15,132 bases of DNA from a virus (Duplodnaviria; Heunggongvirae; Uroviricota; Caudoviricetes): the IMG/VR virus record IMGVR_UViG_2627853771_000002; one strand, written 5' to 3'. The position numbers were made by a program, and so were the translations under genes. Each line of letters opens with the position of its first letter. Positions within the stretch are counted from its first letter, which is position 1. Shown here one piece after another: positions 3,130-14,553 of the stretch. A model generated the notes under the pieces. That model searched no databases. It saw only the letters and a program-made list of their open reading frames with translations, and was not told where the DNA came from.

Positions 3130-3428
3130 CAGAGAGCCTCCACGTTACGGAAGCTGGTGGGGCAAATTGCCTTCAAATCGCGCATAGCCTCTAGAACATG
3201 CATATTTGTGCGATTCTTGGTGTGTCGCTCGGTCAGGCGATCACACTCTTTCGCCCATGATTTGACCTCTGCAAGAAGGGCGTCACGTTCGGTGCGCGTC
3301 TGGCGCAGAGCTACATTCGAAACATCGAGGACGGTAGCCAGTTCCTTGATGATTGCTGCCTGTTCTGGTGGCATAGTTTTGGCTATTTCGTACGCCTGTT
3401 TAATCAGTTGTTTTGCTGTCTTAGCCAT
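3129..3428 (-). CDS. Hypothetical protein (99 aa), first gene of the leftward operon
   Basis: ATG at 3428-3426 preceded by GGAGAA; translation MAKTAKQLIKQAYEIAKTMPPEQAAIIKELATVLDVS.... The ORF track extends to 3479 only through a TTG. No family recognised. Confidence 0.55.
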   Translation of the reverse strand: MAKTAKQLIKQAYEIAKTMPPEQAAIIKELATVLDVSNVALRQTRTERDALLAEVKSWAKECDRLTERHTKNRTNMHVLEAMRDLKAICPTSFRNVEAL

Positions 3429-3721
3429 CTTTTGTTCTCCATCTGACGCTCTGCAACGCGTAAATTTAGGGTGCAGCAACCCAACCCATGAGAATGGGTG
3501 AATAGCTGGTTAAAATTTCTTGCTGATGGGGGACCGCCACTGCAATGGCGGTACGTTAGTTCTCCACACAACACAGAAGAGCACCTGCGGCCGCAAATCC
3601 GCTCGGGCGGATTGTGTTAGGGCACGTCACTCGGTGGTGCTCTGATGTCTTTTGTAAAAGGGCGAACCAGAAACAATGGGGAAACTGGTGCCGCCAAGAT
3701 GACATAGTCCATCAGACTCAC

Positions 3722-3772
3722 TTGATGTTAGGTTATGCCTAATGTCATGTCAATAGGCTTAGCCTAATGTTG
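3722..3772. promoter_or_regulatory. OL-like operator pair with an overlapping leftward promoter
   Basis: Two palindromes: ttaggt-tat-gcctaa (3728-3742) and ataggc-tta-gcctaat (3753-3768). On the minus strand a -35 TTGACA (complement of 3748-3753), a 17-bp spacer and a -10 TAACAT (complement of 3725-3730) overlap them. Confidence 0.5.
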
Positions 3773-3781
3773 GTCGGCGGT

Positions 3782-3807
3782 CAAAAAAAATCCCGCATAA
3801 GCGGGAT
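3782..3807 (-). terminator. Rho-independent terminator ending the repressor operon (hairpin plus T-run on the minus strand)
   Basis: Stem ATCCCGC/GCGGGAT (3790-3807) with loop ATAA; an A8 run at 3782-3789 on the plus strand is a T8 run after the hairpin on the minus strand. Lies between the native stop of the nuclease-like gene (3838) and the operators. Confidence 0.5.
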
Positions 3808-3837
3808 TTGTGTGAAATAAAGCTAGTGTTTTTATGA

Positions 3838-3882
3838 TTATGGACGACGCTTTCTGAAATTCTCATCATTCTGTACATATTG
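3838..3882 (-). other. Orphaned native 3' end (14 codons plus stop) of the IS1-interrupted nuclease-like gene
   Basis: Joining the reading frame of CDS 4660-5769 across the target duplication continues ...L-QYVQNDENFRKRRP-stop, with TAA at 3840-3838. Confidence 0.45.
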
Positions 3883-3891
3883 TAAAGAATC
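3883..3891. repeat. IS1 target-site duplication, left copy (TAAAGAATC)
   Basis: The 9 bp immediately left of the IS1 end are identical to 4660-4668. Confidence 0.85.
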
Positions 3892-3946
3892 GGTGATGCT
3901 GCCAACTTACTGATTTAGTGTATGATGGTGTTTTTGAGGTGCTCCA

Positions 3947-4222
3947 GTGGCTTCTGTTTCTATCAGCTGTCCCTCCTGTTCAGCTACTGACGGGGTGGTG
4001 CGTAACGGCAAAAGCACCGCCGGACATCAGCGCTATCTCTGCTCTCACTGCCGTAAAACATGGCAACTGCAGTTCACTTACACCGCTTCTCAACCCGGTA
4101 CGCACCAGAAAATCATTGATATGGCCATGAATGGCGTTGGATGCCGGGCAACTGCCCGCATTATGGGCGTTGGCCTCAACACGATTTTACGTCACTTAAA
4201 AAACTCAGGCCGCAGTCGGTAA
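3947..4222 (+). CDS. insA: IS1 InsA
   Basis: 91-aa [43 protein letters not shown]..., recalled as IS1 InsA. Confidence 0.9.
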
Positions 4223-4644
4223 CCTCGCGCATACAGCCGGGCAGTGACGTCATCGTCTGCGCGGAAATGGACGAACAGTGGGGCTATGTCGGGGCTAAAT
4301 CGCGCCAGCGCTGGCTGTTTTACGCGTATGATAGTCTCCGGAAGACGGTTGTTGCGCACGTATTCGGTGAGCGCACTATGGCGACGCTGGGGCGTCTTAT
4401 GAGCCTGCTGTCACCCTTTGACGTGGTGATATGGATGACGGATGGCTGGCCGCTGTATGAATCCCGCCTGAAGGGAAAGCTGCACGTAATCAGCAAGCGA
4501 TATACGCAGCGAATTGAGCGGCATAACCTGAATCTGAGGCAGCACCTGGCACGGCTGGGACGGAAGTCGCTGTCGTTCTCAAAATCGGTGGAGCTGCATG
4601 ACAAAGTCATCGGGCATTATCTGAACATAAAACACTATCAATAA
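4141..4644 (+). CDS. insB: IS1 InsB (expressed as an InsAB' fusion by -1 frameshifting)
   Basis: 167-aa [28 protein letters not shown]... in the -1 frame relative to insA, overlapping its 3' end. Confidence 0.85.
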
Positions 4645-5769
4645 GTTGGAGTCATTACCTAAAGAATCAAGGATTAAACCTGAAATCCTTAATACATCCT
4701 CGGGATGTTCAATGAAAATACGATTGTTATCATGTTCAAGTCCGGCTCTTTTAATTTCATTACCGGTTATTTCATTGATATCAATTGGTAACTGTATGTT
4801 TGAGCGATTCTTCTTGTCATAATAGCGAACCAGCCAGCGGTTTGTTTTTCCTTGGAAAAGAATAGAGTAATAGGACTCTGTATCTTTGGCTTGAAGTTCG
4901 TATGCAGGGCCTATAATAGAACAGATTTTTTCAAATAAAATTCTTTCATTATAGGTTGTTACTATGTTGGGGTTCTCTGCATCGACAATATCTGCGCGCT
5001 CATCAATTACATTATTTTCAGTTACATCAGCAGGGGATTCTAATTCAGGAATAGATGTTCTTGATGAAAGACCAGAAACAACCATTTCACTTACTGACCT
5101 CTCTACGGCCTGCCTCACCAATGGAGTTATTGTTTCTATAAATCTTTGATTTAATTGACGACCAATATTTGCTCGTCCTGCAACATATCTAACAAATTCA
5201 TGATCTACTTCCCGAAGGCTTGTACTCACGACTTTAACAAATGCAGAAATATAAACACTCTCTTCTGCAAGGGTTCTTAGGGCCTCTGGTTTGAATTTGT
5301 CATGGCGGAATCTAAATAATTGCTCAGCATCAGAATCTTTAATGTCATCCATCATGATTCGTAAAAATGGCGTTGAATCCATTATATTTTTTTCATTGAG
5401 ATCCGTAAAAAAGCGCCATTCAATTCCATTAGTAATTGCTGATATTGTCACCTCAGGAGTAGAATTAAAATACCTAGATAATTGAGGACAATGGTTGTCC
5501 ATTTTTTCTTTACAACCTTTGGCCTCAATAAACATAACGGGAACACCTTGGCAGAATAGAGCATAATCTACACGCTCACCCACTTTCACACCAGGGAAGT
5601 CCGCACCATATTCAGCTTTGACTTTTTGCGGATCATATGCGTTAAAGCCTAGGATGTCCAAAAAAGGAAGTATCAAAGCCTGCTTGGTTGTCTCTTCCGT
5701 TGTGCAGTGTTCTCTAACATTTTTAACATGTTCAATGTGATTTTTAAGACGTACTTTGAAGTTTTCCAT
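4579..5769 (-). CDS. Repressor-linked protein with an HsdR-N-like PD-(D/E)xK nuclease N-terminal domain and an uncharacterised C-terminal domain; 3' end replaced by IS1 sequence
   Basis: ATG at 5769 (MENFKVRL...) after GGAGGA. The first 130 aa or so follow the pattern I associate with the type I restriction HsdR N-terminal nuclease fold (D...VDYALF...[10 protein letters not shown]...QLSRY...TNG). Codons 4660-5769 are native; 4579-4659 are read from the IS1 right end. Lies downstream of, and on the same strand as, the repressor gene, inside the operator-bounded immunity region. Confidence 0.6.
4660..4668. repeat. IS1 target-site duplication, right copy (TAAAGAATC)
   Basis: Identical to 3883-3891. 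Confidence 0.85.
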
Positions 5770-5939
5770 GCATCCTCCATGCAAAGTGAAAACCTGCTGT
5801 TAAATCAAAGCAAGTCACAATCCCGGATAGGCTTCATACAAGCCAATCCCCCACAGGGATTGAGTTATGCAAGCGAATCAATCTCAGAGCTTTTAACATG
5901 TATGGAGCTTAGAGATATTGTCCGTTAGACCATATAAGC

Positions 5940-6416
5940 TTAAGCTCTGGCTTTCGTTTGTTTTTTTCCATCTTCCTCCTGCTCTGCCCATCTCCTTATC
6001 TTCATCTCTAATGAGTCTAAATATGCTTTAGCATCGCTATCTACCCAGCCAGGTATACGCTGTCCTTGCTCTAAGAGGACAAAATCAATGATAGCCTTTT
6101 TTTCTCTCGAAGCCTTATTATAGAGCTCGTCAATAGAACCATTTTTAACTATGGGATCTGTTGCGGGCTCACATGTATCAGTTAGCGGGTATCCCTTTAG
6201 TCCCCAGTGCTCGGGGCCCACAACATCAGAAAAGTAGTTCCAAAGCTCTGGTAGCTTCTCTTTCGATATGGAGCCTTTATTGATCCAGTCATGGATTGAT
6301 GGGGGTTTTATTTTGAAATGACGTGCGATTTCCGCCTTACTCTTGGCAGAACCTATTGAAAGCTTCTTGTCTATGGCCTGCTCGATCGCTCGGCCCAATT
6401 CTTTACCACTAAGCAT
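5940..6416 (-). CDS. CI/RacR-like helix-turn-helix repressor with no S24 peptidase domain
   Basis: 158-aa ORF with an N-terminal HTH-like segment (LSGKELGRAIEQAIDKKLSIGSAKSKAEIARHFKIKPPSIHDW); no Ala-Gly/Ser-Lys autocleavage features seen. Divergent from a Cro/YdaS-like gene across an operator-containing region. Confidence 0.7.
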   Translation of the reverse strand: MLSGKELGRAIEQAIDKKLSIGSAKSKAEIARHFKIKPPSIHDWINKGSISKEKLPELWNYFSDVVGPEHWGLKGYPLTDTCEPATDPIVKNGSIDELYNKASREKKAIIDFVLLEQGQRIPGWVDSDAKAYLDSLEMKIRRWAEQEEDGKKQTKARA

Positions 6417-6443
6417 TGCCTAATAATCCTCATAACCTATAGC

Positions 6444-6486
6444 TTAGGCAATTCCTATTGATTGTTTATTAGGCTTAGCCTAATAT
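6444..6486. promoter_or_regulatory. OR-like operator region with a rightward promoter
   Basis: Perfect 8+3+8 palindrome TATTAGGC-TTA-GCCTAATA at 6467-6485 and a degenerate copy at about 6444-6459. -35 TTGATT (6458-6463), 17-bp spacer, -10 TAATAT (6481-6486); the palindrome sits in the spacer. Confidence 0.55.
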
Positions 6487-6517: not shown

Positions 6518-6781
6518 ATGAGAAGTAGCCTTGAAGCAATCAGTGAAGCCTGCCGCATTGTTGGGGGACAAGCCGCTTTGTCAAGGAATCTAGGCATCTC
6601 ATCACCAACAGTGAATCAATGGACAACGGGCATTAGGCAAATACCTGCGGAACGATGTCCTGCGATTGAGAAAGCTACTGGTGGTGCTGTCACCTGCGAA
6701 GAGCTTCGTCCTGACATTGACTGGGCCTATTTAAGAGGTGCAGCAATGCGAAAGCTTAATGTCACTGCATCAAATTTGTAA
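6518..6781 (+). CDS. YdaS/Cro-like HTH regulator
   Basis: 87 aa from the ATG at 6518 (AGGAA seven nt upstream). Motifs GGQAALSRNLGISSPTVNQW...IPAERCPAIEKATGGAVTCEELRPD match my recollection of the YdaS/Cro-type family. The ORF track starts at a TTG at 6491. Confidence 0.7.
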   Translation: MRSSLEAISEACRIVGGQAALSRNLGISSPTVNQWTTGIRQIPAERCPAIEKATGGAVTCEELRPDIDWAYLRGAAMRKLNVTASNL

Positions 6782-6809: not shown

Positions 6810-7262
6810 ATGAACCTCAAAGAAGTCGTGAAATCTATGTGCAAAGCATATCCAGGTGGGCGCGAAGCAATGGCTGGCGCACTGGGAATGACGGTGACGC
6901 AGTTTAACAACAACCTTTACGAGAAAAACGGCTGTCGTTTCTTCGAAGTCAGCGAACTGGAAGCGATGGAGGACATCTCGAATACATCTCACCTGGCTGA
7001 ATATTTTGCCCGCCGTCGTGGTGCTCTGCTGGTGGATGTTCCGCACCTGGAAGAACTGGACCGCGTGGACTTGTTTAGCCGGGCAATGCGTACCTCTGCC
7101 GCCAGGGGGCAGGTTGATCAGATTATCGAACAGGCGCTTGAAGATGGCGTTATTGAAAGGCACGAGGCCGAAGAAATCATGGTGCATCACCGCCGTCACC
7201 TGGCAGCTCGTGAAGAAGAGATTGCCGCAATCATCACGCTTTTTTCACGCAAAAAGAAGTGA
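6810..7262 (+). CDS. CII-like / YdaT-like regulatory protein
   Basis: 150 aa from the ATG at 6810 (AAAGGAG five nt upstream), directly after the YdaS-like gene as in Rac-type prophages. Family assignment is from position and general resemblance only. Confidence 0.45.
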   Translation: MNLKEVVKSMCKAYPGGREAMAGALGMTVTQFNNNLYEKNGCRFFEVSELEAMEDISNTSHLAEYFARRRGALLVDVPHLEELDRVDLFSRAMRTSAARGQVDQIIEQALEDGVIERHEAEEIMVHHRRHLAAREEEIAAIITLFSRKKK

Positions 7263-8138: not shown

Positions 8139-8981
8139 ATGAAACTGACTTTACCATTTCCACCGAGCGTAAATAGTTACTGGCGCGCCCCGAGCAAGGG
8201 ACCGCTGAAAGGCAGGCATCTGGTAAGCGAGACAGGGCGCAAGTTCCAGCAGGCAGCGAGAGCGGCGATTATTGAGCAACTGCGGGCCGTTCCCCGGCCA
8301 TCCTCAGATCTGGCCGAGGTTCACATAAACGTTGTTGAGGGCGCGGGGCTTGAGCTTGATCCTGATGATGATTCACAGGTTCTTAAAGCGATTGGTGGCG
8401 GTCGCCTGCTTAATATTGTCACCTTTACTAAGTCAGGGACTTACACTCCAACTAAAGGGACGAAAAGAGTGCGGGTGAAAGTTTGGGGAGCGGGGGGAGG
8501 TGGCCAGAATGCTCCAGTTAGTGTGGGCGCATCTGGAGGTTGTGCTGGTGGATTTTCGGAAGGGTTATTTAATATTTCTGATAACGAAACTATATCTGTG
8601 ACGATAGGTACTGGTGGCAGTGCTGTTGCTGCTGGTGTCTCGTCTAAAGGCGGGAATGGTGGTGATACAAGGTTCGGGAGTTTAATCTCAGCTACTGGAG
8701 GGAGTGGTGGCGGGGCTACAGTTCCTGCTGGAGGTATCGGAAGTGGCGGGAACATTTTAAATATTACTGGCGAAATATCTCAAGGTGGTCTGTATTATGG
8801 TTCTGATGCTTTTATTGGCGGGGCTGGAGGATCTGCATTTTCATCAACGGGTGGCAATGGCCACTTCGGTAGTTCTGGCGATGATGGCGGTTTCCCCGGC
8901 TCAGGTGGTGCCGGGGGGAATGGTAACTATTCATCAGGAAAAGGAGCGAATGGTTTAGTTTACCTTGAAGAGTTTTCCTGA
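8139..8981 (+). CDS. RusA-like N-terminal region fused in frame to a glycine-rich, fibre-like C-terminal region
   Basis: N-terminus MKLTLPFPPSVNSYWR... resembles the RusA resolvase N-terminus (ITLPWPPSNNRYYR), and ...GGGRLLNIVTFT resembles the RusA C-terminus. From about aa 110 the protein is a GGxGG-rich tract of about 170 aa. ATG at 8139 follows AAGGGGG. Confidence 0.5.
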   Translation: MKLTLPFPPSVNSYWRAPSKGPLKGRHLVSETGRKFQQAARAAIIEQLRAVPRPSSDLAEVHINVVEGAGLELDPDDDSQVLKAIGGGRLLNIVTFTKSGTYTPTKGTKRVRVKVWGAGGGGQNAPVSVGASGGCAGGFSEGLFNISDNETISVTIGTGGSAVAAGVSSKGGNGGDTRFGSLISATGGSGGGATVPAGGIGSGGNILNITGEISQGGLYYGSDAFIGGAGGSAFSSTGGNGHFGSSGDDGGFPGSGGAGGNGNYSSGKGANGLVYLEEFS

Positions 8982-10051
8982 TTATTTTTGCTTTGAGCGT
9001 CCGCCCTTATTTTTGCTCTAATTTTAATTAGTGGCTTGTCTATTAATATTACACAAACGATCCCAAGTGCAATTGATATTGGGTAGCCTAATAAAAAGAT
9101 GGATAAGCCACGATTTTCACCACCAATAGCAAGCCATGCTAGAAATCCACCAAAATATTGACAAAGAAAAATTGGATAGGCCAGGTCACCAAACCACTTG
9201 AGTATTTTCTCAAGATGTATGTTTGTCTTTATTTTTAATAATACCAGGGTTGTAAACAATGCTATTACATTATTGGTGTAGTAAAGTATTATGTTGTACT
9301 GACCTAATGGATTAATTGTATATAAATGCCAATTGGTAATAAAAATCCCGATGCAAATAAATGTTATTAAAAAAGCTTTGTGTGGAGAAAGATACATAGC
9401 TTTGAACTTTCTATGGGCAAAATAACCCAGAGAACCCATGCTAAAAGGAAGTGTTGCAGCAAGGAATGGGAAATACGCCATATCAAAAGAATGGTGTACT
9501 ACATATACGTAAGCATGATAAAGCAGTGAAAGCAGAATCGACGTAATGGCTGTAAATTTATTTCGGGCTATGAAAAGCCACAATAAAAAATAACATGTTA
9601 TCTCAACACCCACTGACCATGATGATGTGACTATTCTGAATCTATTACCATCAATAGCAAAGTGATAAATGGATGAAAAGGCACCGAATGGATTTGCTAC
9701 AGCATTATCAGAAAGGAAAGCCCAGGGGAAGATTAAGAGGTTTCCTAATAAATCTCCAGGTAAGAAATTGCCTGTCCAGTTTGAGTGGAATTCCTTTGCG
9801 GATGGAATTAATTTTATAATAAGAAAGCCCATGACGAGAAAAAATATATATGCCGGGAATAACCTCAGTATTCTATTTTTCCAAAACATAGAGAAGTTGA
9901 ACTTGTATGTTTCATGCAAAATGTATGTTATTAAAAAACCACTAATAACATAGAAGCAATTCACTGCAAAGTTGCCAAGTGCAGGTATGCGAGCCGTTAA
10001 GTGAAAAGCAATGACGCACGATGCCAAAAAAAACCTTATTAGGCCAAGCAT
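8960..10051 (-). CDS. Acyltransferase-3 family integral membrane protein (O-antigen O-acetyltransferase-like, Oac/OafA type)
   Basis: 363-aa very hydrophobic ORF with motifs typical of the family (RFFLASCVIAFH, FYVISGFLITY); strongly AT-rich relative to its flanks. Its 3' end overlaps the convergent glycine-rich ORF by about 22 bp. Confidence 0.75.
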   Translation of the reverse strand: MLGLIRFFLASCVIAFHLTARIPALGNFAVNCFYVISGFLITYILHETYKFNFSMFWKNRILRLFPAYIFFLVMGFLIIKLIPSAKEFHSNWTGNFLPGDLLGNLLIFPWAFLSDNAVANPFGAFSSIYHFAIDGNRFRIVTSSWSVGVEITCYFLLWLFIARNKFTAITSILLSLLYHAYVYVVHHSFDMAYFPFLAATLPFSMGSLGYFAHRKFKAMYLSPHKAFLITFICIGIFITNWHLYTINPLGQYNIILYYTNNVIALFTTLVLLKIKTNIHLEKILKWFGDLAYPIFLCQYFGGFLAWLAIGGENRGLSIFLLGYPISIALGIVCVILIDKPLIKIRAKIRADAQSKNNQENSSR

Positions 10052-10314
10052 TATTTTATCTCCGCGCCAATATCGCGCATTTTATTTATTACATTGTTAA
10101 GTTGCTCATCAGACAGAACAAGCTGAGCTGCAATATAAAACAGTATGTGTCTTGACATTACCCTGGGGCTCTCTCCGCCAGTGTATTTCCGCCATTGGCT
10201 ATCGCTGGCTACACCTGCGAGCCCTGCCATTTGGTTTCCGGAGTAATTTAGTGCGGATTTCAGTCTGGCTAAATCTTCCTGCGTTGGAGGGGTGTATTTA
10301 TTTATTAAAATCAT
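10051..10314 (-). CDS. Small XRE-type HTH protein co-transcribed with the acyltransferase
   Basis: 87 aa from the ATG at 10314 (track ORF starts at a GTG at 10338). HTH-like segment LARLKSALNYSGNQMAGLAGVASDSQWRKYTGGESPR. Its stop overlaps the acyltransferase start (TAATG). Confidence 0.5.
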   Translation of the reverse strand: MILINKYTPPTQEDLARLKSALNYSGNQMAGLAGVASDSQWRKYTGGESPRVMSRHILFYIAAQLVLSDEQLNNVINKMRDIGAEIK

Positions 10315-10415
10315 TCTCTTATTTAACCGTTTAAACACGTAAGGCGATGTTAGCCCTGAAGGGGCGGGGCGTCAATCTTAATTGCTTCATTGAAAAGATG
10401 AAGACAGGAACAGGT

Positions 10416-12410
10416 ATGGACAAAAGATATAATACCGGCAATCCAAGACCTTCAAATAGCATGAAGGATCTGAATGATAACGCCCTGGCGTACGATGATT
10501 TCCTGAACAGCGAAAGCGATACTTTTATAGATCGTTTTGGTAACGCCCAGGATACGATAATTGGGGCTACTAAAAAAATGGCAGCTGCTACCGACGCTGT
10601 TATTGATGAAGCCCGCCAAAACCTGATCCCTCTCAGCCGGCAGTACATGACGCTGGCGGCGGCGCAGGCGGATATTGCGAATATTCCGGCAGGTTCAACA
10701 ACCTATGTCCGCAGTCAGGACGGAAGCTCTCTGGCCGATGAGTATATCAACCTCGCTGGAACGCTGCAGCCAACCGGACGGCGGATGGTTCGTGACGACT
10801 ACGCATACCAGGTATCGCCAGACAGCGTGACCCTGGCAGCATATGATCCGGAGACTTCCCGCGTGGCTCCATTTTTAAATACAAGCGGCAGATTAATTCA
10901 AATCGGTCCTGACGGAAAATATTACGAACTTTTAACCCAACAAGAATCCGAACTCTATGCGCTGGGCCGGGAGGGTTCTATACCGCAGTTTATTGGCGGT
11001 GAAAAAGTGTGGCGGATGACGGTTGATTCAACCACAAACCAGATCGTTGAAGCTTATACGGTTGGTGGGAAGCACTGGATTTACTCAGACGGTGGCCTGG
11101 TAGCTGTTAATAACGGAAATGGCGGTGGTGGTGGCGACGATGATGCCAACCAGCTCCCTGAGTATGGACTTCATTTGTCAGGGTCTACTGTGTACCCCTA
11201 CTCAGAGACAGTGCCTGTATGTTTTATCTTTGTGACTGCTGGGCAATCCAACGCTCGAGGATATTGTCCTGACGCCGATCAAACCATTGTCGCAGCAACG
11301 CCGATATATCCTGATAACGCTTTCATGCTCAGCGGCGGGGTTAGGCGTACAGGGACACGCAGCACTACTCTGGTGCCACTGGTTGAGGCAGTAAGTGGGA
11401 CAGATAAAGAAACGGCCGCAAGCGGCCTCGCGAACACCTTCATTCGCGATATGGCTGCAGCTACCGGAATCATGCCGCGCACGCTATCAATCGTATGTGC
11501 GCAGTCTGGTCAGGCTTACGAGTACCAGAAACGGGGTAACCAGGTATATCAGTATCTGCTCGATTCAATCGAAGACTGCGTAACGGCCTGTAAAGCACGC
11601 GGCTGGCTGCCGATTGTTCTCTGCGTTGACTGGATGCAGGGAGAGTCCGACGAGGACTGGTCAGGATTACGAGAAGGAATGTATGAATCACGGATGAGGC
11701 AGTACCAGAGACAAATCACCAGCGACATCATCGCAAGAACGGGTCAAAACGAACCGCCGATTATCGCCATTACCCAGCTGGGGTATGTCAATGACGGGCA
11801 TGGTGCATTTACAGGCCAGTACGCGCGACTGGCGTCGACGCGATTGCACGGAAAAGAGCAATTCAGGCTGGTCAATAGTTTGTACCAGTACGATTTTATT
11901 TCAGACGGTCTGCACTTGACGTGTGCGGGCCAGAACCGGCGCGGAGCAGCTGTGGCGAGAGCGCTTCTCCAGGAGTGGTTTACGAGCGGCTGGTCAGGGA
12001 TGGTTCCGACCAGTTTCGTGTGGAACTCACCCACGCAGATACAAATCAATGTCCCAGCGTATACGAACCTGGTGCTGGACACGACTACGATCAACACCTC
12101 CGGTCTGGCCAATTACGGCTTTAGCTACACGGATGAGACTGGTGCTCCACCTGCTATATCGAGCATCGCGATCAGCTCGGACGGCAAGGGCGTGCTGATT
12201 AACCTGGCGACCGCCCCCTCTGGACGTTTTGGGCGCGTTTCCTATGCGACAGCAGAAAACCCACTTCAGAGCGGCGCATCTGTAAAACCTTCCGGGCGGA
12301 CTCTTGGTGCAAGAGGGTGTGTTCGATCTTCCGCTGGAATCATATGGGTGTATGACACATCCGTGACTCTTTACGACTGGCTCCCCGCTTTTCGTATTAA
12401 CGTTTTCTGA
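10416..12410 (+). CDS. Tail-fibre/tailspike-like protein with an internal SGNH/SASA-type carbohydrate esterase domain
   Basis: Esterase block motifs in order: GQSN (VTAGQSNARGY, nt about 11241-11252), QGESD (DWMQGESDED, nt about 11631-11651) and DxxH (SDGLHLT, nt about 11904-11918). A Gly/Asp linker (NGNGGGGGDDD) precedes the domain. Start taken as the ATG at 10416 (AGGAACAGG upstream); the maximal ORF begins at 10347. Confidence 0.55.
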   Translation: MDKRYNTGNPRPSNSMKDLNDNALAYDDFLNSESDTFIDRFGNAQDTIIGATKKMAAATDAVIDEARQNLIPLSRQYMTLAAAQADIANIPAGSTTYVRSQDGSSLADEYINLAGTLQPTGRRMVRDDYAYQVSPDSVTLAAYDPETSRVAPFLNTSGRLIQIGPDGKYYELLTQQESELYALGREGSIPQFIGGEKVWRMTVDSTTNQIVEAYTVGGKHWIYSDGGLVAVNNGNGGGGGDDDANQLPEYGLHLSGSTVYPYSETVPVCFIFVTAGQSNARGYCPDADQTIVAATPIYPDNAFMLSGGVRRTGTRSTTLVPLVEAVSGTDKETAASGLANTFIRDMAAATGIMPRTLSIVCAQSGQAYEYQKRGNQVYQYLLDSIEDCVTACKARGWLPIVLCVDWMQGESDEDWSGLREGMYESRMRQYQRQITSDIIARTGQNEPPIIAITQLGYVNDGHGAFTGQYARLASTRLHGKEQFRLVNSLYQYDFISDGLHLTCAGQNRRGAAVARALLQEWFTSGWSGMVPTSFVWNSPTQIQINVPAYTNLVLDTTTINTSGLANYGFSYTDETGAPPAISSIAISSDGKGVLINLATAPSGRFGRVSYATAENPLQSGASVKPSGRTLGARGCVRSSAGIIWVYDTSVTLYDWLPAFRINVF

Positions 12411-14533: not shown

Positions 14534-14553
14534 TACTGTATATAAAAACAGTA
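14534..14553 (+). promoter_or_regulatory. LexA (SOS) box overlapping a promoter
   Basis: TACTGTATATAAAAACAGTA matches the E. coli consensus TACTG(TA)5CAGTA at 18 of 20 positions (CTGT-N8-ACAG intact). A possible -35 TTGATC lies at 14510-14515. Confidence 0.75.

Follow-up and report, generated by a model that had tools for sequence, protein, structure and literature searches.

The locus raised the question of whether two clusters of a short palindrome, each lying over an outward promoter, form the immunity switch of a prophage, and which protein reads the palindromes. The window, by which we mean the whole stretch of 15,132 nucleotides analysed, belongs to an E. coli prophage whose integration site is tRNA-Ser, beside mtfA. 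This prophage is a remnant that has lost its replication and lysis genes and carries a truncated rusA. We consider it highly probable that the region acts as the immunity (lysis/lysogeny) switch of this defective lambdoid prophage and that a RacR-family repressor runs it. Since only a remnant is left, the switch may now serve only to silence harmful genes.

The identity of the repressor was the first part of the answer. It is encoded next to two divergent genes:

5940 to 6416, minus strand: racR-family repressor gene, 158 aa (NCBIfam NF049929, 56% identity to K-12 RacR)
6518 to 6781, plus strand: cro-like gene, 87 aa, YdaS-family helix-turn-helix (Pfam YdaS 2.7e-30, P22_Cro 3.9e-07)
6810 to 7262, plus strand: cII-like gene, 150 aa, YmfL/CP76 family (Phage_CP76/YmfL match)

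The repressor passed the RacR equivalog model with 254.3 bits against a cut-off of 200 over residues 1-148 of 158, aligned with K-12 RacR without large gaps, and is annotated as racR in RefSeq. The N-terminal domain was near-identical to that of K-12 RacR, while the C-terminal half was far more diverged. No Pfam match to Peptidase_S24 was found in the 158-aa protein, the sole Pfam match being a weak YdaS-type helix-turn-helix. PHROGs held no family matching the repressor, and a PADLOC scan and a PDB sequence search with it gave no match. The earlier note, made from the letters alone, had assigned the protein a cI-like role; this held for the logic of the switch but not for homology to lambda cI. 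The C-terminal fold of RacR is also known to differ from that of cI (PMC11014345). The missing S24 self-cleavage domain makes RecA-mediated induction unlikely. A scan for LexA boxes detected a single one in the window, at 14536-14551 in a umuD-like remnant; the immunity region had none and showed no sign of SOS control. The Cro-like protein shared 56% identity with K-12 YdaS, and an intergenic gap of 101 bp separated its gene from racR.

The palindromes were located as two sites on the left (OL) and three on the right (OR):

3728 to 3742, unstranded: OL1 operator, TTAGGTTATGCCTAA = TTAGGT-TAT-GCCTAA, 1 mismatch
3753 to 3767, unstranded: OL2 operator, ATAGGCTTAGCCTAA = ATAGGC-TTA-GCCTAA, 1 mismatch
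6409 to 6423, unstranded: O3 operator, CTAAGCATTGCCTAA = CTAAGC-ATT-GCCTAA, 2 mismatches
6444 to 6458, unstranded: O2 operator, TTAGGCAATTCCTAT = TTAGGC-AAT-TCCTAT, 2 mismatches
6467 to 6485 with full arms (core 6469-6483), unstranded: O1 operator, core TTAGGCTTAGCCTAA, 0 mismatches

With up to 2 mismatches to TTAGGC-N3-GCCTAA allowed, the window contained 6 matches where 0.57 +/- 0.77 were expected, and none of 200 shuffles gave as many as 6. The enrichment that the earlier note had predicted from a motif scan was thus found, well above background frequency. A single stray match, with 2 mismatches, lay at position 10039. The arms of O1 were perfect over 8 nt each (TATTAGGC-TTA-GCCTAATA). Both clusters in the earlier note were confirmed, including the perfect copy at 6467-6485, with two intervals amended from 3753-3768 and 6444-6459 to those given for OL2 and O2. 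On the right it had listed two sites, which stood, and had overlooked the third, O3, which spans the racR ATG (6414-6416). No third OL site was found in the window at up to 2 mismatches, so OL comprised two sites only. A weak third OL site, 19 bp away, was seen in some K-12-type loci.

The operators were interwoven with the promoters. These and the terminator were as follows:

3725 to 3753, minus strand: PL promoter, TTGACA (3753..3748), 17-nt spacer, TAACAT (3730..3725)
6458 to 6486, plus strand: PR promoter, TTGATT (6458-6463), 17-nt spacer, TAATAT (6481-6486)
6423 to 6451, minus strand: candidate PRM, TTGCCT (6451..6446), 17-nt spacer, GATTAT (6428..6423)
6557 to 6584, minus strand: promoter-like TTGACA-16-AACAAT inside cro, pointing towards racR
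3780 to 3809, minus strand: intrinsic terminator, hairpin 3809..3788 with a 9-bp stem and 4-nt loop, then a T run

PL points leftwards, away from the repressor gene. OL1 sits inside its spacer and extends 3 bp into the -10 hexamer, and OL2, 25 bp from OL1, abuts or overlaps the -35 hexamer. On the right, O1 sits in the spacer of PR and reaches into the -10 hexamer, and O2 overlaps the -35 hexamer. The left and right operator-promoter cassettes were identical at 31 of 43 positions. Outward promoters at both clusters had been proposed before. The left one was recovered by the promoter scan; the right one scored 8/12, under the scan threshold, and was read directly from the sequence. By alignment, PR is homologous to K-12 PydaST and takes the same position; that promoter has been mapped by experiment and also has TAATAT as its -10 (PMC9638921, PMC11879457). 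Transcription from the candidate PRM is predicted to start at the A of the racR ATG, under O3, which would give a leaderless transcript; the K-12 PracR3 transcript is leaderless (PMC9638921). The -35 hexamer of the candidate PRM falls inside O2, so that lambda-like activation by O2-bound repressor is not obvious. The promoter-like element inside cro is possibly an analogue of PRE/PracR4 (PMC11879457). The terminator, which had also been predicted between the clusters, would end the putative racR-cargo transcript ahead of OL and PL. Rfam at gathering thresholds found only the tRNA in the whole window, and permissive thresholds over 3300-3900 gave only sub-threshold noise; the PL leader matched no known RNA family.

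The binding site of the repressor could be judged against published work on K-12 Rac. The footprinted operator consensus of K-12 RacR is (T/A)TAGGC-n3-GCCTA(T/A), with O1 over the ydaS promoter and O3 over the racR ATG (PMC9638921). Upstream of racR the window likewise carried operators of the RacR consensus, with one on the ydaS promoter and another on the racR start codon. They aligned with the K-12 sites; O3 held the same position as in K-12 and lay at -7 from the racR start in window-type loci. The binding site that the earlier note had predicted for the repressor equals the published footprint consensus. The note was right that the operator differs from that of lambda, but the operator is not new: the GCCTAA/TTAGGC repeats were noticed in 2017, EMSA included (PMC5700373), and the operator was mapped in 2022 (PMC9638921). 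The right cluster is known biology, published for K-12 Rac. That the sequence alone recovered an experimentally established operator validates the method of the first reading.

It is very unlikely, in our view, that the palindromes are chiefly sites of the Cro-like YdaS protein and that the 158-aa protein recognises something else. The two proteins do have a weakly similar helix-turn-helix in common, the PaaR2 and YdaS footprints overlap in CP-933P (PMC8630535), and YdaS autoregulates in K-12 (PMC9638921). However, purified K-12 RacR footprints exactly the palindrome consensus, and the motif and the N-terminal domain of RacR co-vary: a RacR homologue was encoded within 2.1 kb at 107 of 118 viral loci bearing the exact composite TTAGGCNNNGCCTATTGACA. 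Sharing of operators by RacR and YdaS is expected in such a switch, and recognition by YdaS complements recognition by RacR more than it competes with it.

The conservation of the two clusters was examined in 93 related loci (957 kb), a set with many near-duplicates, so that its counts overstate independence; de-duplication left 46 unique OL and 52 unique OR sequences. Sites with up to 1 mismatch numbered 263 in the two clusters and 1 outside them. Downstream of racR, 66 of 68 loci had a pair spaced by 25 bp around an invariant TTGACA; its distance, 0.57-3.1 kb, varied with the cargo genes. Among the 46 unique OL sequences OL1 was conserved, and the half-sites and the TTGACA of PL were invariant while the spacers varied; the degenerate half-site of O2 was itself conserved. 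The spacing and the -35/-10 register of OL were the same from Escherichia to Burkholderia and Achromobacter. The layout of two clusters with outward promoters flanking the repressor, as first proposed, was real, and its order of OL/PL, terminator, cargo, repressor and OR/PR was retained in relatives from several bacterial orders. In K-12 Rac the left pair lies between ydaG and racR (NC_000913.3, 1419629-1419668).

These data bear on whether the left pair could have arisen by chance or as a copy of OR without function, with PL outside repressor control. The left pair goes unmentioned in the RacR papers examined, and its occupancy is what we infer. Nonetheless, the constant spacing, register and half-sites amid varying spacers, together with the single off-cluster site in 957 kb, make such an origin extremely improbable. 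The genes of the K-12 left arm are also derepressed when RacR drops, with ydaG, ydaF, kilR, ydaE and racC up 40-70-fold (PMC6765115, PMC11014345, preprint 10.64898/2026.09.06.749655). Control through the left pair, over a strong TTGACA promoter and conserved family-wide, would directly explain why RacR silences the left arm, including ydaG, kilR and recET. With the RacR-type switch, its operator and the right cluster known, this conserved second pair appears to be the modest new detail. An earlier description of OL is possible; the 1996 study of Rac kil by Conter et al. reportedly may describe the left promoter.

We found it very unlikely that the module is a toxin-repressor (toxin-antitoxin-like) pair, in which RacR only silences toxins of the ydaS/ydaT type, with the left cluster as an incidental relic. 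The Pfam family is still named 'YdaS toxin', racR is essential in K-12 because of ydaS/ydaT (PMC5700373), and the prophage in the window is defective. But YdaT (PF06254) was absent downstream of the YdaS-type gene, where the next gene encodes a YmfL/CP76 CII-like activator, and the loci that kept the left pair and its promoter included complete phages such as Klebsiella phage KpF5. RacR, YdaS and YdaT are now treated as analogues of CI, Cro and CII (PMC5917428, PMC11879457).

Between the clusters, the nuclease-like gene proposed in the earlier note was present but not intact, being interrupted by an insertion sequence that the note had overlooked:

3838 to 3891, minus strand: 3' fragment of the HSDR_N/DUF450 cargo gene, last 15 codons and stop, severed by IS1
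3892 to 4659, plus strand: complete IS1, 768 bp, insA and insB, with 9-bp target duplications
4660 to 5769, minus strand: 5' part of the HSDR_N/DUF450 endonuclease-like cargo gene, 369 codons, downstream of racR

IS1 interrupts the gene 15 codons before its end. The target duplications (TAAAGAATC) lay at 3883-3891 and 4660-4668, and removal of IS1 in silico restored a 384-aa ORF. The insertion lengthened the distance between OL and OR from 1964 to 2741 bp. The cargo protein matched Pfam HSDR_N (2.7e-14) and phrog_4225 'endonuclease' (2e-152), and these were the only matches of the restored 384-aa protein; PADLOC returned 0 families for it, and a PDB sequence search gave only a spurious P450 match. 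In E. coli O9:H10 strains the match to the window begins at the end of IS1, which had suggested an IS1-mediated deletion of OL. This was rejected, as IS1 lies elsewhere in those strains, beside yodB.

Taken together, these features suggest how the switch would work. Site sequences, positions, conservation and the repressor family come from the present analysis. Binding to the consensus, PR strength, the leaderless racR and the octamer are taken from published K-12 Rac work. RacR, with an N-terminal helix-turn-helix and a C-terminal oligomerisation domain in place of any S24 self-cleavage domain, would bind as dimers to palindromes of 15-19 bp with the consensus (A)TTAGGC-N3-GCCTAA(T). Occupied O1 (PR -10 and spacer) and O2 (PR -35) would switch off cro (YdaS type), cII (YmfL type) and the genes that follow, and O3 over the leaderless racR start would provide negative autoregulation. 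OL1 and OL2 are probably occupied over PL in the same register as on the right; PL would drive a ParB-like gene, xis and int. The racR gene is probably co-transcribed with the downstream cargo, whose endonuclease-like function is likewise putative, and the terminator would stop this transcript just before OL. K-12 RacR is an octamer (PMC11014345) and each end carries a universally conserved two-site pair, so that the repressed state is most likely four dimers bridging OL and OR in a lambda-like manner. The presumed loop would span about 2 kb, and 2.7 kb in the window owing to IS1. In published work the K-12 octamer is modelled on four sites within the racR-ydaS gap, not across a loop; the left pair offers the looped-octamer model.

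A wider generalisation we put forward tentatively, with slightly less than even confidence. The core of RacR switches may be a 2+2 design, with a 25-bp pair over PL and another over PR, an octamer looping OL to OR, a loop interior that serves as a variable cargo slot, and an operator specificity kept from Enterobacterales to Burkholderiales. The findings also point to the racR-to-OL interval as a location of accessory genes in prophages, possibly for phage exclusion. It holds nothing in K-12, the HSDR_N endonuclease in the window, and other genes in Burkholderia and Achromobacter. If true, the shared operator specificity would give many unrelated prophages immunity to one another. The general view of lambdoid switches stays as it was.

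Four known systems come close to that of the window, one of them being K-12 Rac. The window and K-12 Rac both have a RacR-family repressor (158 aa), a YdaS-family Cro, the same operator consensus, O1 over a TAATAT -10, an operator on the racR start codon, a promoter layout of the leaderless type, and a left pair with 25-bp spacing around TTGACA. They differ in prophage and integration site (tRNA-Ser/mtfA for the window), in OR (3 sites in a 101-bp gap against 4 sites in 123 bp in K-12), in the CII-like gene (YmfL/CP76 against YdaT) and in the racR-OL interval, which holds the endonuclease-like gene and IS1 in the window, whereas OL directly follows racR in K-12. Lambda likewise has PRM and PR diverging across three operators, and some 2 kb away a further operator set at PL. 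The repressor mRNA is leaderless in lambda and predicted to be so in the window, cargo genes and then a terminator follow the repressor gene, and the repressor can form octamers (for the RacR family, known from the K-12 protein). In contrast, lambda cI has an S24 self-cleavage domain, another operator sequence and no detectable homology with the window repressor beyond a generic helix-turn-helix, and rexAB is unrelated to the window cargo. Lambda OL has three sites instead of two, so that OL3-OR3 autoregulation of the lambda style is not directly copied. The PaaR2-YdaS-YdaT system of CP-933P (E. coli O157:H7) also has lambdoid logic and cargo behind the repressor; its PL/OL set is experimentally regulated by the repressor and YdaS, and its repressor is octameric and its gene leaderless (PMC8630535). 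Unlike in the window, its operators are 18-bp palindromes with the half-site GTTTAGTAA, and its cargo is the toxin-antitoxin pair paaA2-parE2. Also close were Klebsiella phage KpF5 (OR327748.1) and 27 IMG/VR contigs, with 97% DNA identity in the immunity region, an identical repressor, an intact 384-aa DUF450 gene (1155 nt in KpF5) free of IS1, and OL at +1872/+1897 from the racR start, as in the window minus IS1. Unlike the window, KpF5 represents a complete phage, 38 kb long, that has replication and Q genes, and its left arm differs from that of the window beyond OL.

The motif TTAGGC-N3-GCCTAA, with up to two mismatches allowed, occurred six times in the window, against 0.57 ± 0.77 expected, and none of the 200 shuffles held six or more matches. 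Five sites were clustered, and the sixth was a stray two-mismatch match at 10039. The earlier note had placed the palindromes correctly to within one base, and the scan confirmed enrichment at both of its clusters. However, on the right it had recognized only the sites at 6444 and 6467, overlooking the one at 6409-6423. Both outward promoters that it claimed were also present. The elements are:

3728-3742: operator OL1, one mismatch (motif scan)
3753-3767: operator OL2, one mismatch (motif scan)
3753..3725, minus: promoter PL, TTGACA-17-TAACAT (consensus scan)
3809..3788, minus: terminator, 9-bp stem and T run (consensus scan)
6409-6423: operator O3, two mismatches (motif scan), over the repressor start codon
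6444-6458: operator O2, two mismatches (motif scan)
6451..6423, minus: candidate promoter PRM, TTGCCT-17-GATTAT, predicted start 6416
6458-6463 and 6481-6486, plus: promoter PR, TTGATT-17-TAATAT, read directly (8/12, under the scan threshold)
6469-6483: operator O1, no mismatch (motif scan), the arms reaching a perfect 8+3+8 at 6467-6485

In each cassette, one operator lay in the promoter spacer and overlapped the -10 hexamer, and the other abutted the -35 hexamer. The left and right 43-bp cassettes matched at 31 of 43 positions, in the same register. O2 (ATAGGAATTGCCTAA on the racR strand) was near-invariant from Klebsiella to Burkholderia, spacer included, among the related loci (L003-L095), probably because it also encodes the -35 hexamers of PR and the candidate PRM. 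The degeneracy of O2 is a conserved design, not decay. The coding sequence of the cro-like gene contains an isolated exact TTAGGC half-site (ATTAGGCAAA, 6633-6638), 157 bp from O1, which may have arisen by chance or serve as an auxiliary site for a monomer, comparable to the one site reported within K-12 racR.

The 158-aa repressor (5940-6416, minus) scored 254 bits on the NCBI RacR equivalog model (cut-off 200), and RefSeq annotates it as racR. It was 56% identical over its full length to RacR of the cryptic prophage Rac in E. coli K-12; the first 75 residues were nearly identical and the C-terminal half had diverged. Pfam detected no S24 peptidase domain in the repressor, and a scan of the immunity region found no LexA box. 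The divergent gene (6518-6781) encodes a YdaS-family Cro (Pfam E-value 2.7e-30; 56% identity to K-12 YdaS). The gene at 6810-7262 encodes a CII-like regulator of the YmfL/CP76 family, not a YdaT. A good promoter match (TTGACA-16-AACAAT, 6557-6584, minus) inside the cro-like gene was directed at racR. Its position is that of K-12 PracR4, which is PRE-like and YdaT-activated, although the window's CII-like protein is from another family. K-12 YdaT is CII-like in action, from a reverse promoter within ydaS (PMC11879457).

In the gap between racR and ydaS of K-12, Krishnamurthi et al. (2017) described three repeats of GCCTAA/TTAGGC, and they demonstrated binding by RacR (PMC5700373). A 2022 NAR paper footprinted RacR, giving ATTAGGC as the monomer motif and (T/A)TAGGC-n3-GCCTA(T/A) as the operator consensus; O1 lies on the ydaS promoter (-10 TAATAT), O3 on the racR ATG, and the main racR transcript is leaderless (PMC9638921). 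The right cluster of the window aligned site for site with that of K-12. The repressor's binding site, predicted by the earlier note from the palindrome, is thus correct, as it matches the footprinted consensus (PMC9638921), but not new.

K-12 Rac also has the left pair between ydaG and racR (locus L002, 6630-6669; NC_000913.3 1419629-1419668), with 25-bp spacing around TTGACA. The RacR papers that we searched did not mention it; an older paper may describe the site. A drop in RacR derepresses ydaG, ydaF, kilR, ydaE and racC 40-70-fold (PMC6765115, PMC11014345, preprint 10.64898/2026.09.06.749655). We compared 13 genome loci and 80 viral loci encoding RacR relatives, from Klebsiella, Mixta, Escherichia, Morganella, Proteus, Burkholderia, Achromobacter and Nitrosomonas. 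Every locus had right-cluster sites at -67/-42/-7 relative to the racR start, or at -94/-68/-43 in the K-12 type. The sequence reached far enough downstream in 68 loci, and 66 of these had a pair with 25-bp spacing, 0.57 to 3.1 kb downstream of racR. The lambdoid two-cluster interpretation in the earlier note is supported. Sites with at most one mismatch numbered 263 in clusters and 1 elsewhere (957 kb). The 46 unique left sequences varied in their spacers and flanks, with invariant half-sites and an invariant TTGACA. The exact composite TTAGGCNNNGCCTATTGACA occurred in at least 120 viral contigs, and a RacR homologue lay within 2.1 kb of it in 107 of 118 loci examined, the exceptions being mostly truncated loci. 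The beta-proteobacterial prophages (L012-L015; Burkholderia, Achromobacter, Nitrosomonas) retained the N-terminal domain of RacR and an unchanged operator sequence, but differed in the C-terminal part and in cargo; in L013-L015 the match was limited to residues 1-87. One DNA-binding specificity appears common to a very wide host range.

The distance from racR to the left pair tracked the insert, which was nothing, an HSDR_N gene (once with IS3 inside) or, in Burkholderiales loci, unrelated genes. The repressor, nuclease-like gene and terminator that the earlier note placed between the clusters were all there, but it had overlooked a complete IS1 at 3892-4659. This element has inverted repeats at 3892 and 4659, InsA and InsB by Pfam, and 9-bp direct target duplications (TAAAGAATC, 3883-3891 and 4660-4668); it is oriented opposite to racR and is 99% identical to IS1 copies within phage records. 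Deleting IS1 and one duplication restored a 384-aa ORF (5769 down to 3838, minus) with an HSDR_N nuclease domain (Pfam, 2.7e-14) and an end-to-end match to phrog_4225 'endonuclease' (2e-152); PADLOC returned no matches for it. The insertion lies 15 codons upstream of the stop, so the cargo product may retain function. Without IS1, the OL1-to-O1 centre distance falls from 2741 to 1964 bp, and the left pair lies at +1872/+1897 relative to the racR start, as in the group with 100% identical repressors. In other E. coli strains the same island carried IS3, ISEc52 or ISKpn26 instead, which marks this small region as a recurrent IS target.

The window holds a defective prophage of ~13.7 kb at tRNA-Ser(CGA), between mtfA and yodB, with an integrase, a ParB-like gene, the immunity region, a Dam methylase, a truncated rusA, and tail-fibre and O-antigen modification genes. 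The tRNA (892-981) adjoins mtfA (1-837) and marks the attachment site, and the integrase (1094-2071, minus) lies immediately inside. A related genome has a partial second tRNA ('tRNA-OTHER') annotated at the island's other end (L096, 16136-16272). Nine complete E. coli genomes carried this island too, each time with different IS elements from that of the window, and Klebsiella phage KpF5 and 27 IMG/VR contigs had an identical repressor and an intact cargo gene. To the right of the truncated rusA the gene content switches: the stretch 8139-12410 holds a tail-fibre-like ORF rich in glycine, an acyltransferase gene that faces inward (8960-10051, minus) and the gene for a SASA-esterase protein of 687 aa. 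E. coli O9:H10 has these genes behind a complete baseplate module, implying that the remnant was fused from pieces of two prophages. One perfect LexA box (CTGTATATAAAAACAG, 14536-14551), unrelated to the immunity region, lies where a small ORF begins; RefSeq gives this ORF as a frameshifted remnant of DNA polymerase V (umuD-like).

The first ~240 nt of the predicted PL transcript (3480-3718, minus) had a strong predicted fold (MFE -80.8 kcal/mol, z -3.05), no convincing gene and no Rfam family match; no N-like gene was present. A leader of the Rho-dependent or antitermination type is one possibility; Rho/NusG silences kilR of K-12 Rac (cited in PMC12482147). The leaders of other RacR lineages are different.

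In the proposed mechanism, RacR dimers on O1 and O2 would occlude PR, and dimers on OL1 and OL2 would occlude PL. O3, over the start of the predicted leaderless racR transcript from the candidate PRM, would mediate autorepression, and the racR-cargo transcript would stop at the terminator, 20 bp ahead of OL2. RacR is an octamer (PMC11014345), which, with the universal two-plus-two sites, suggests to us an OL-OR loop. In the published K-12 model, by contrast, the octamer occupies four sites, all in the racR-ydaS gap; that model cannot apply here, as the gap in the window has three. Overall, the region represents the known RacR/YdaS switch in a new allele; what it adds, to a modest degree, is a conserved pair of left operators and a cargo slot.
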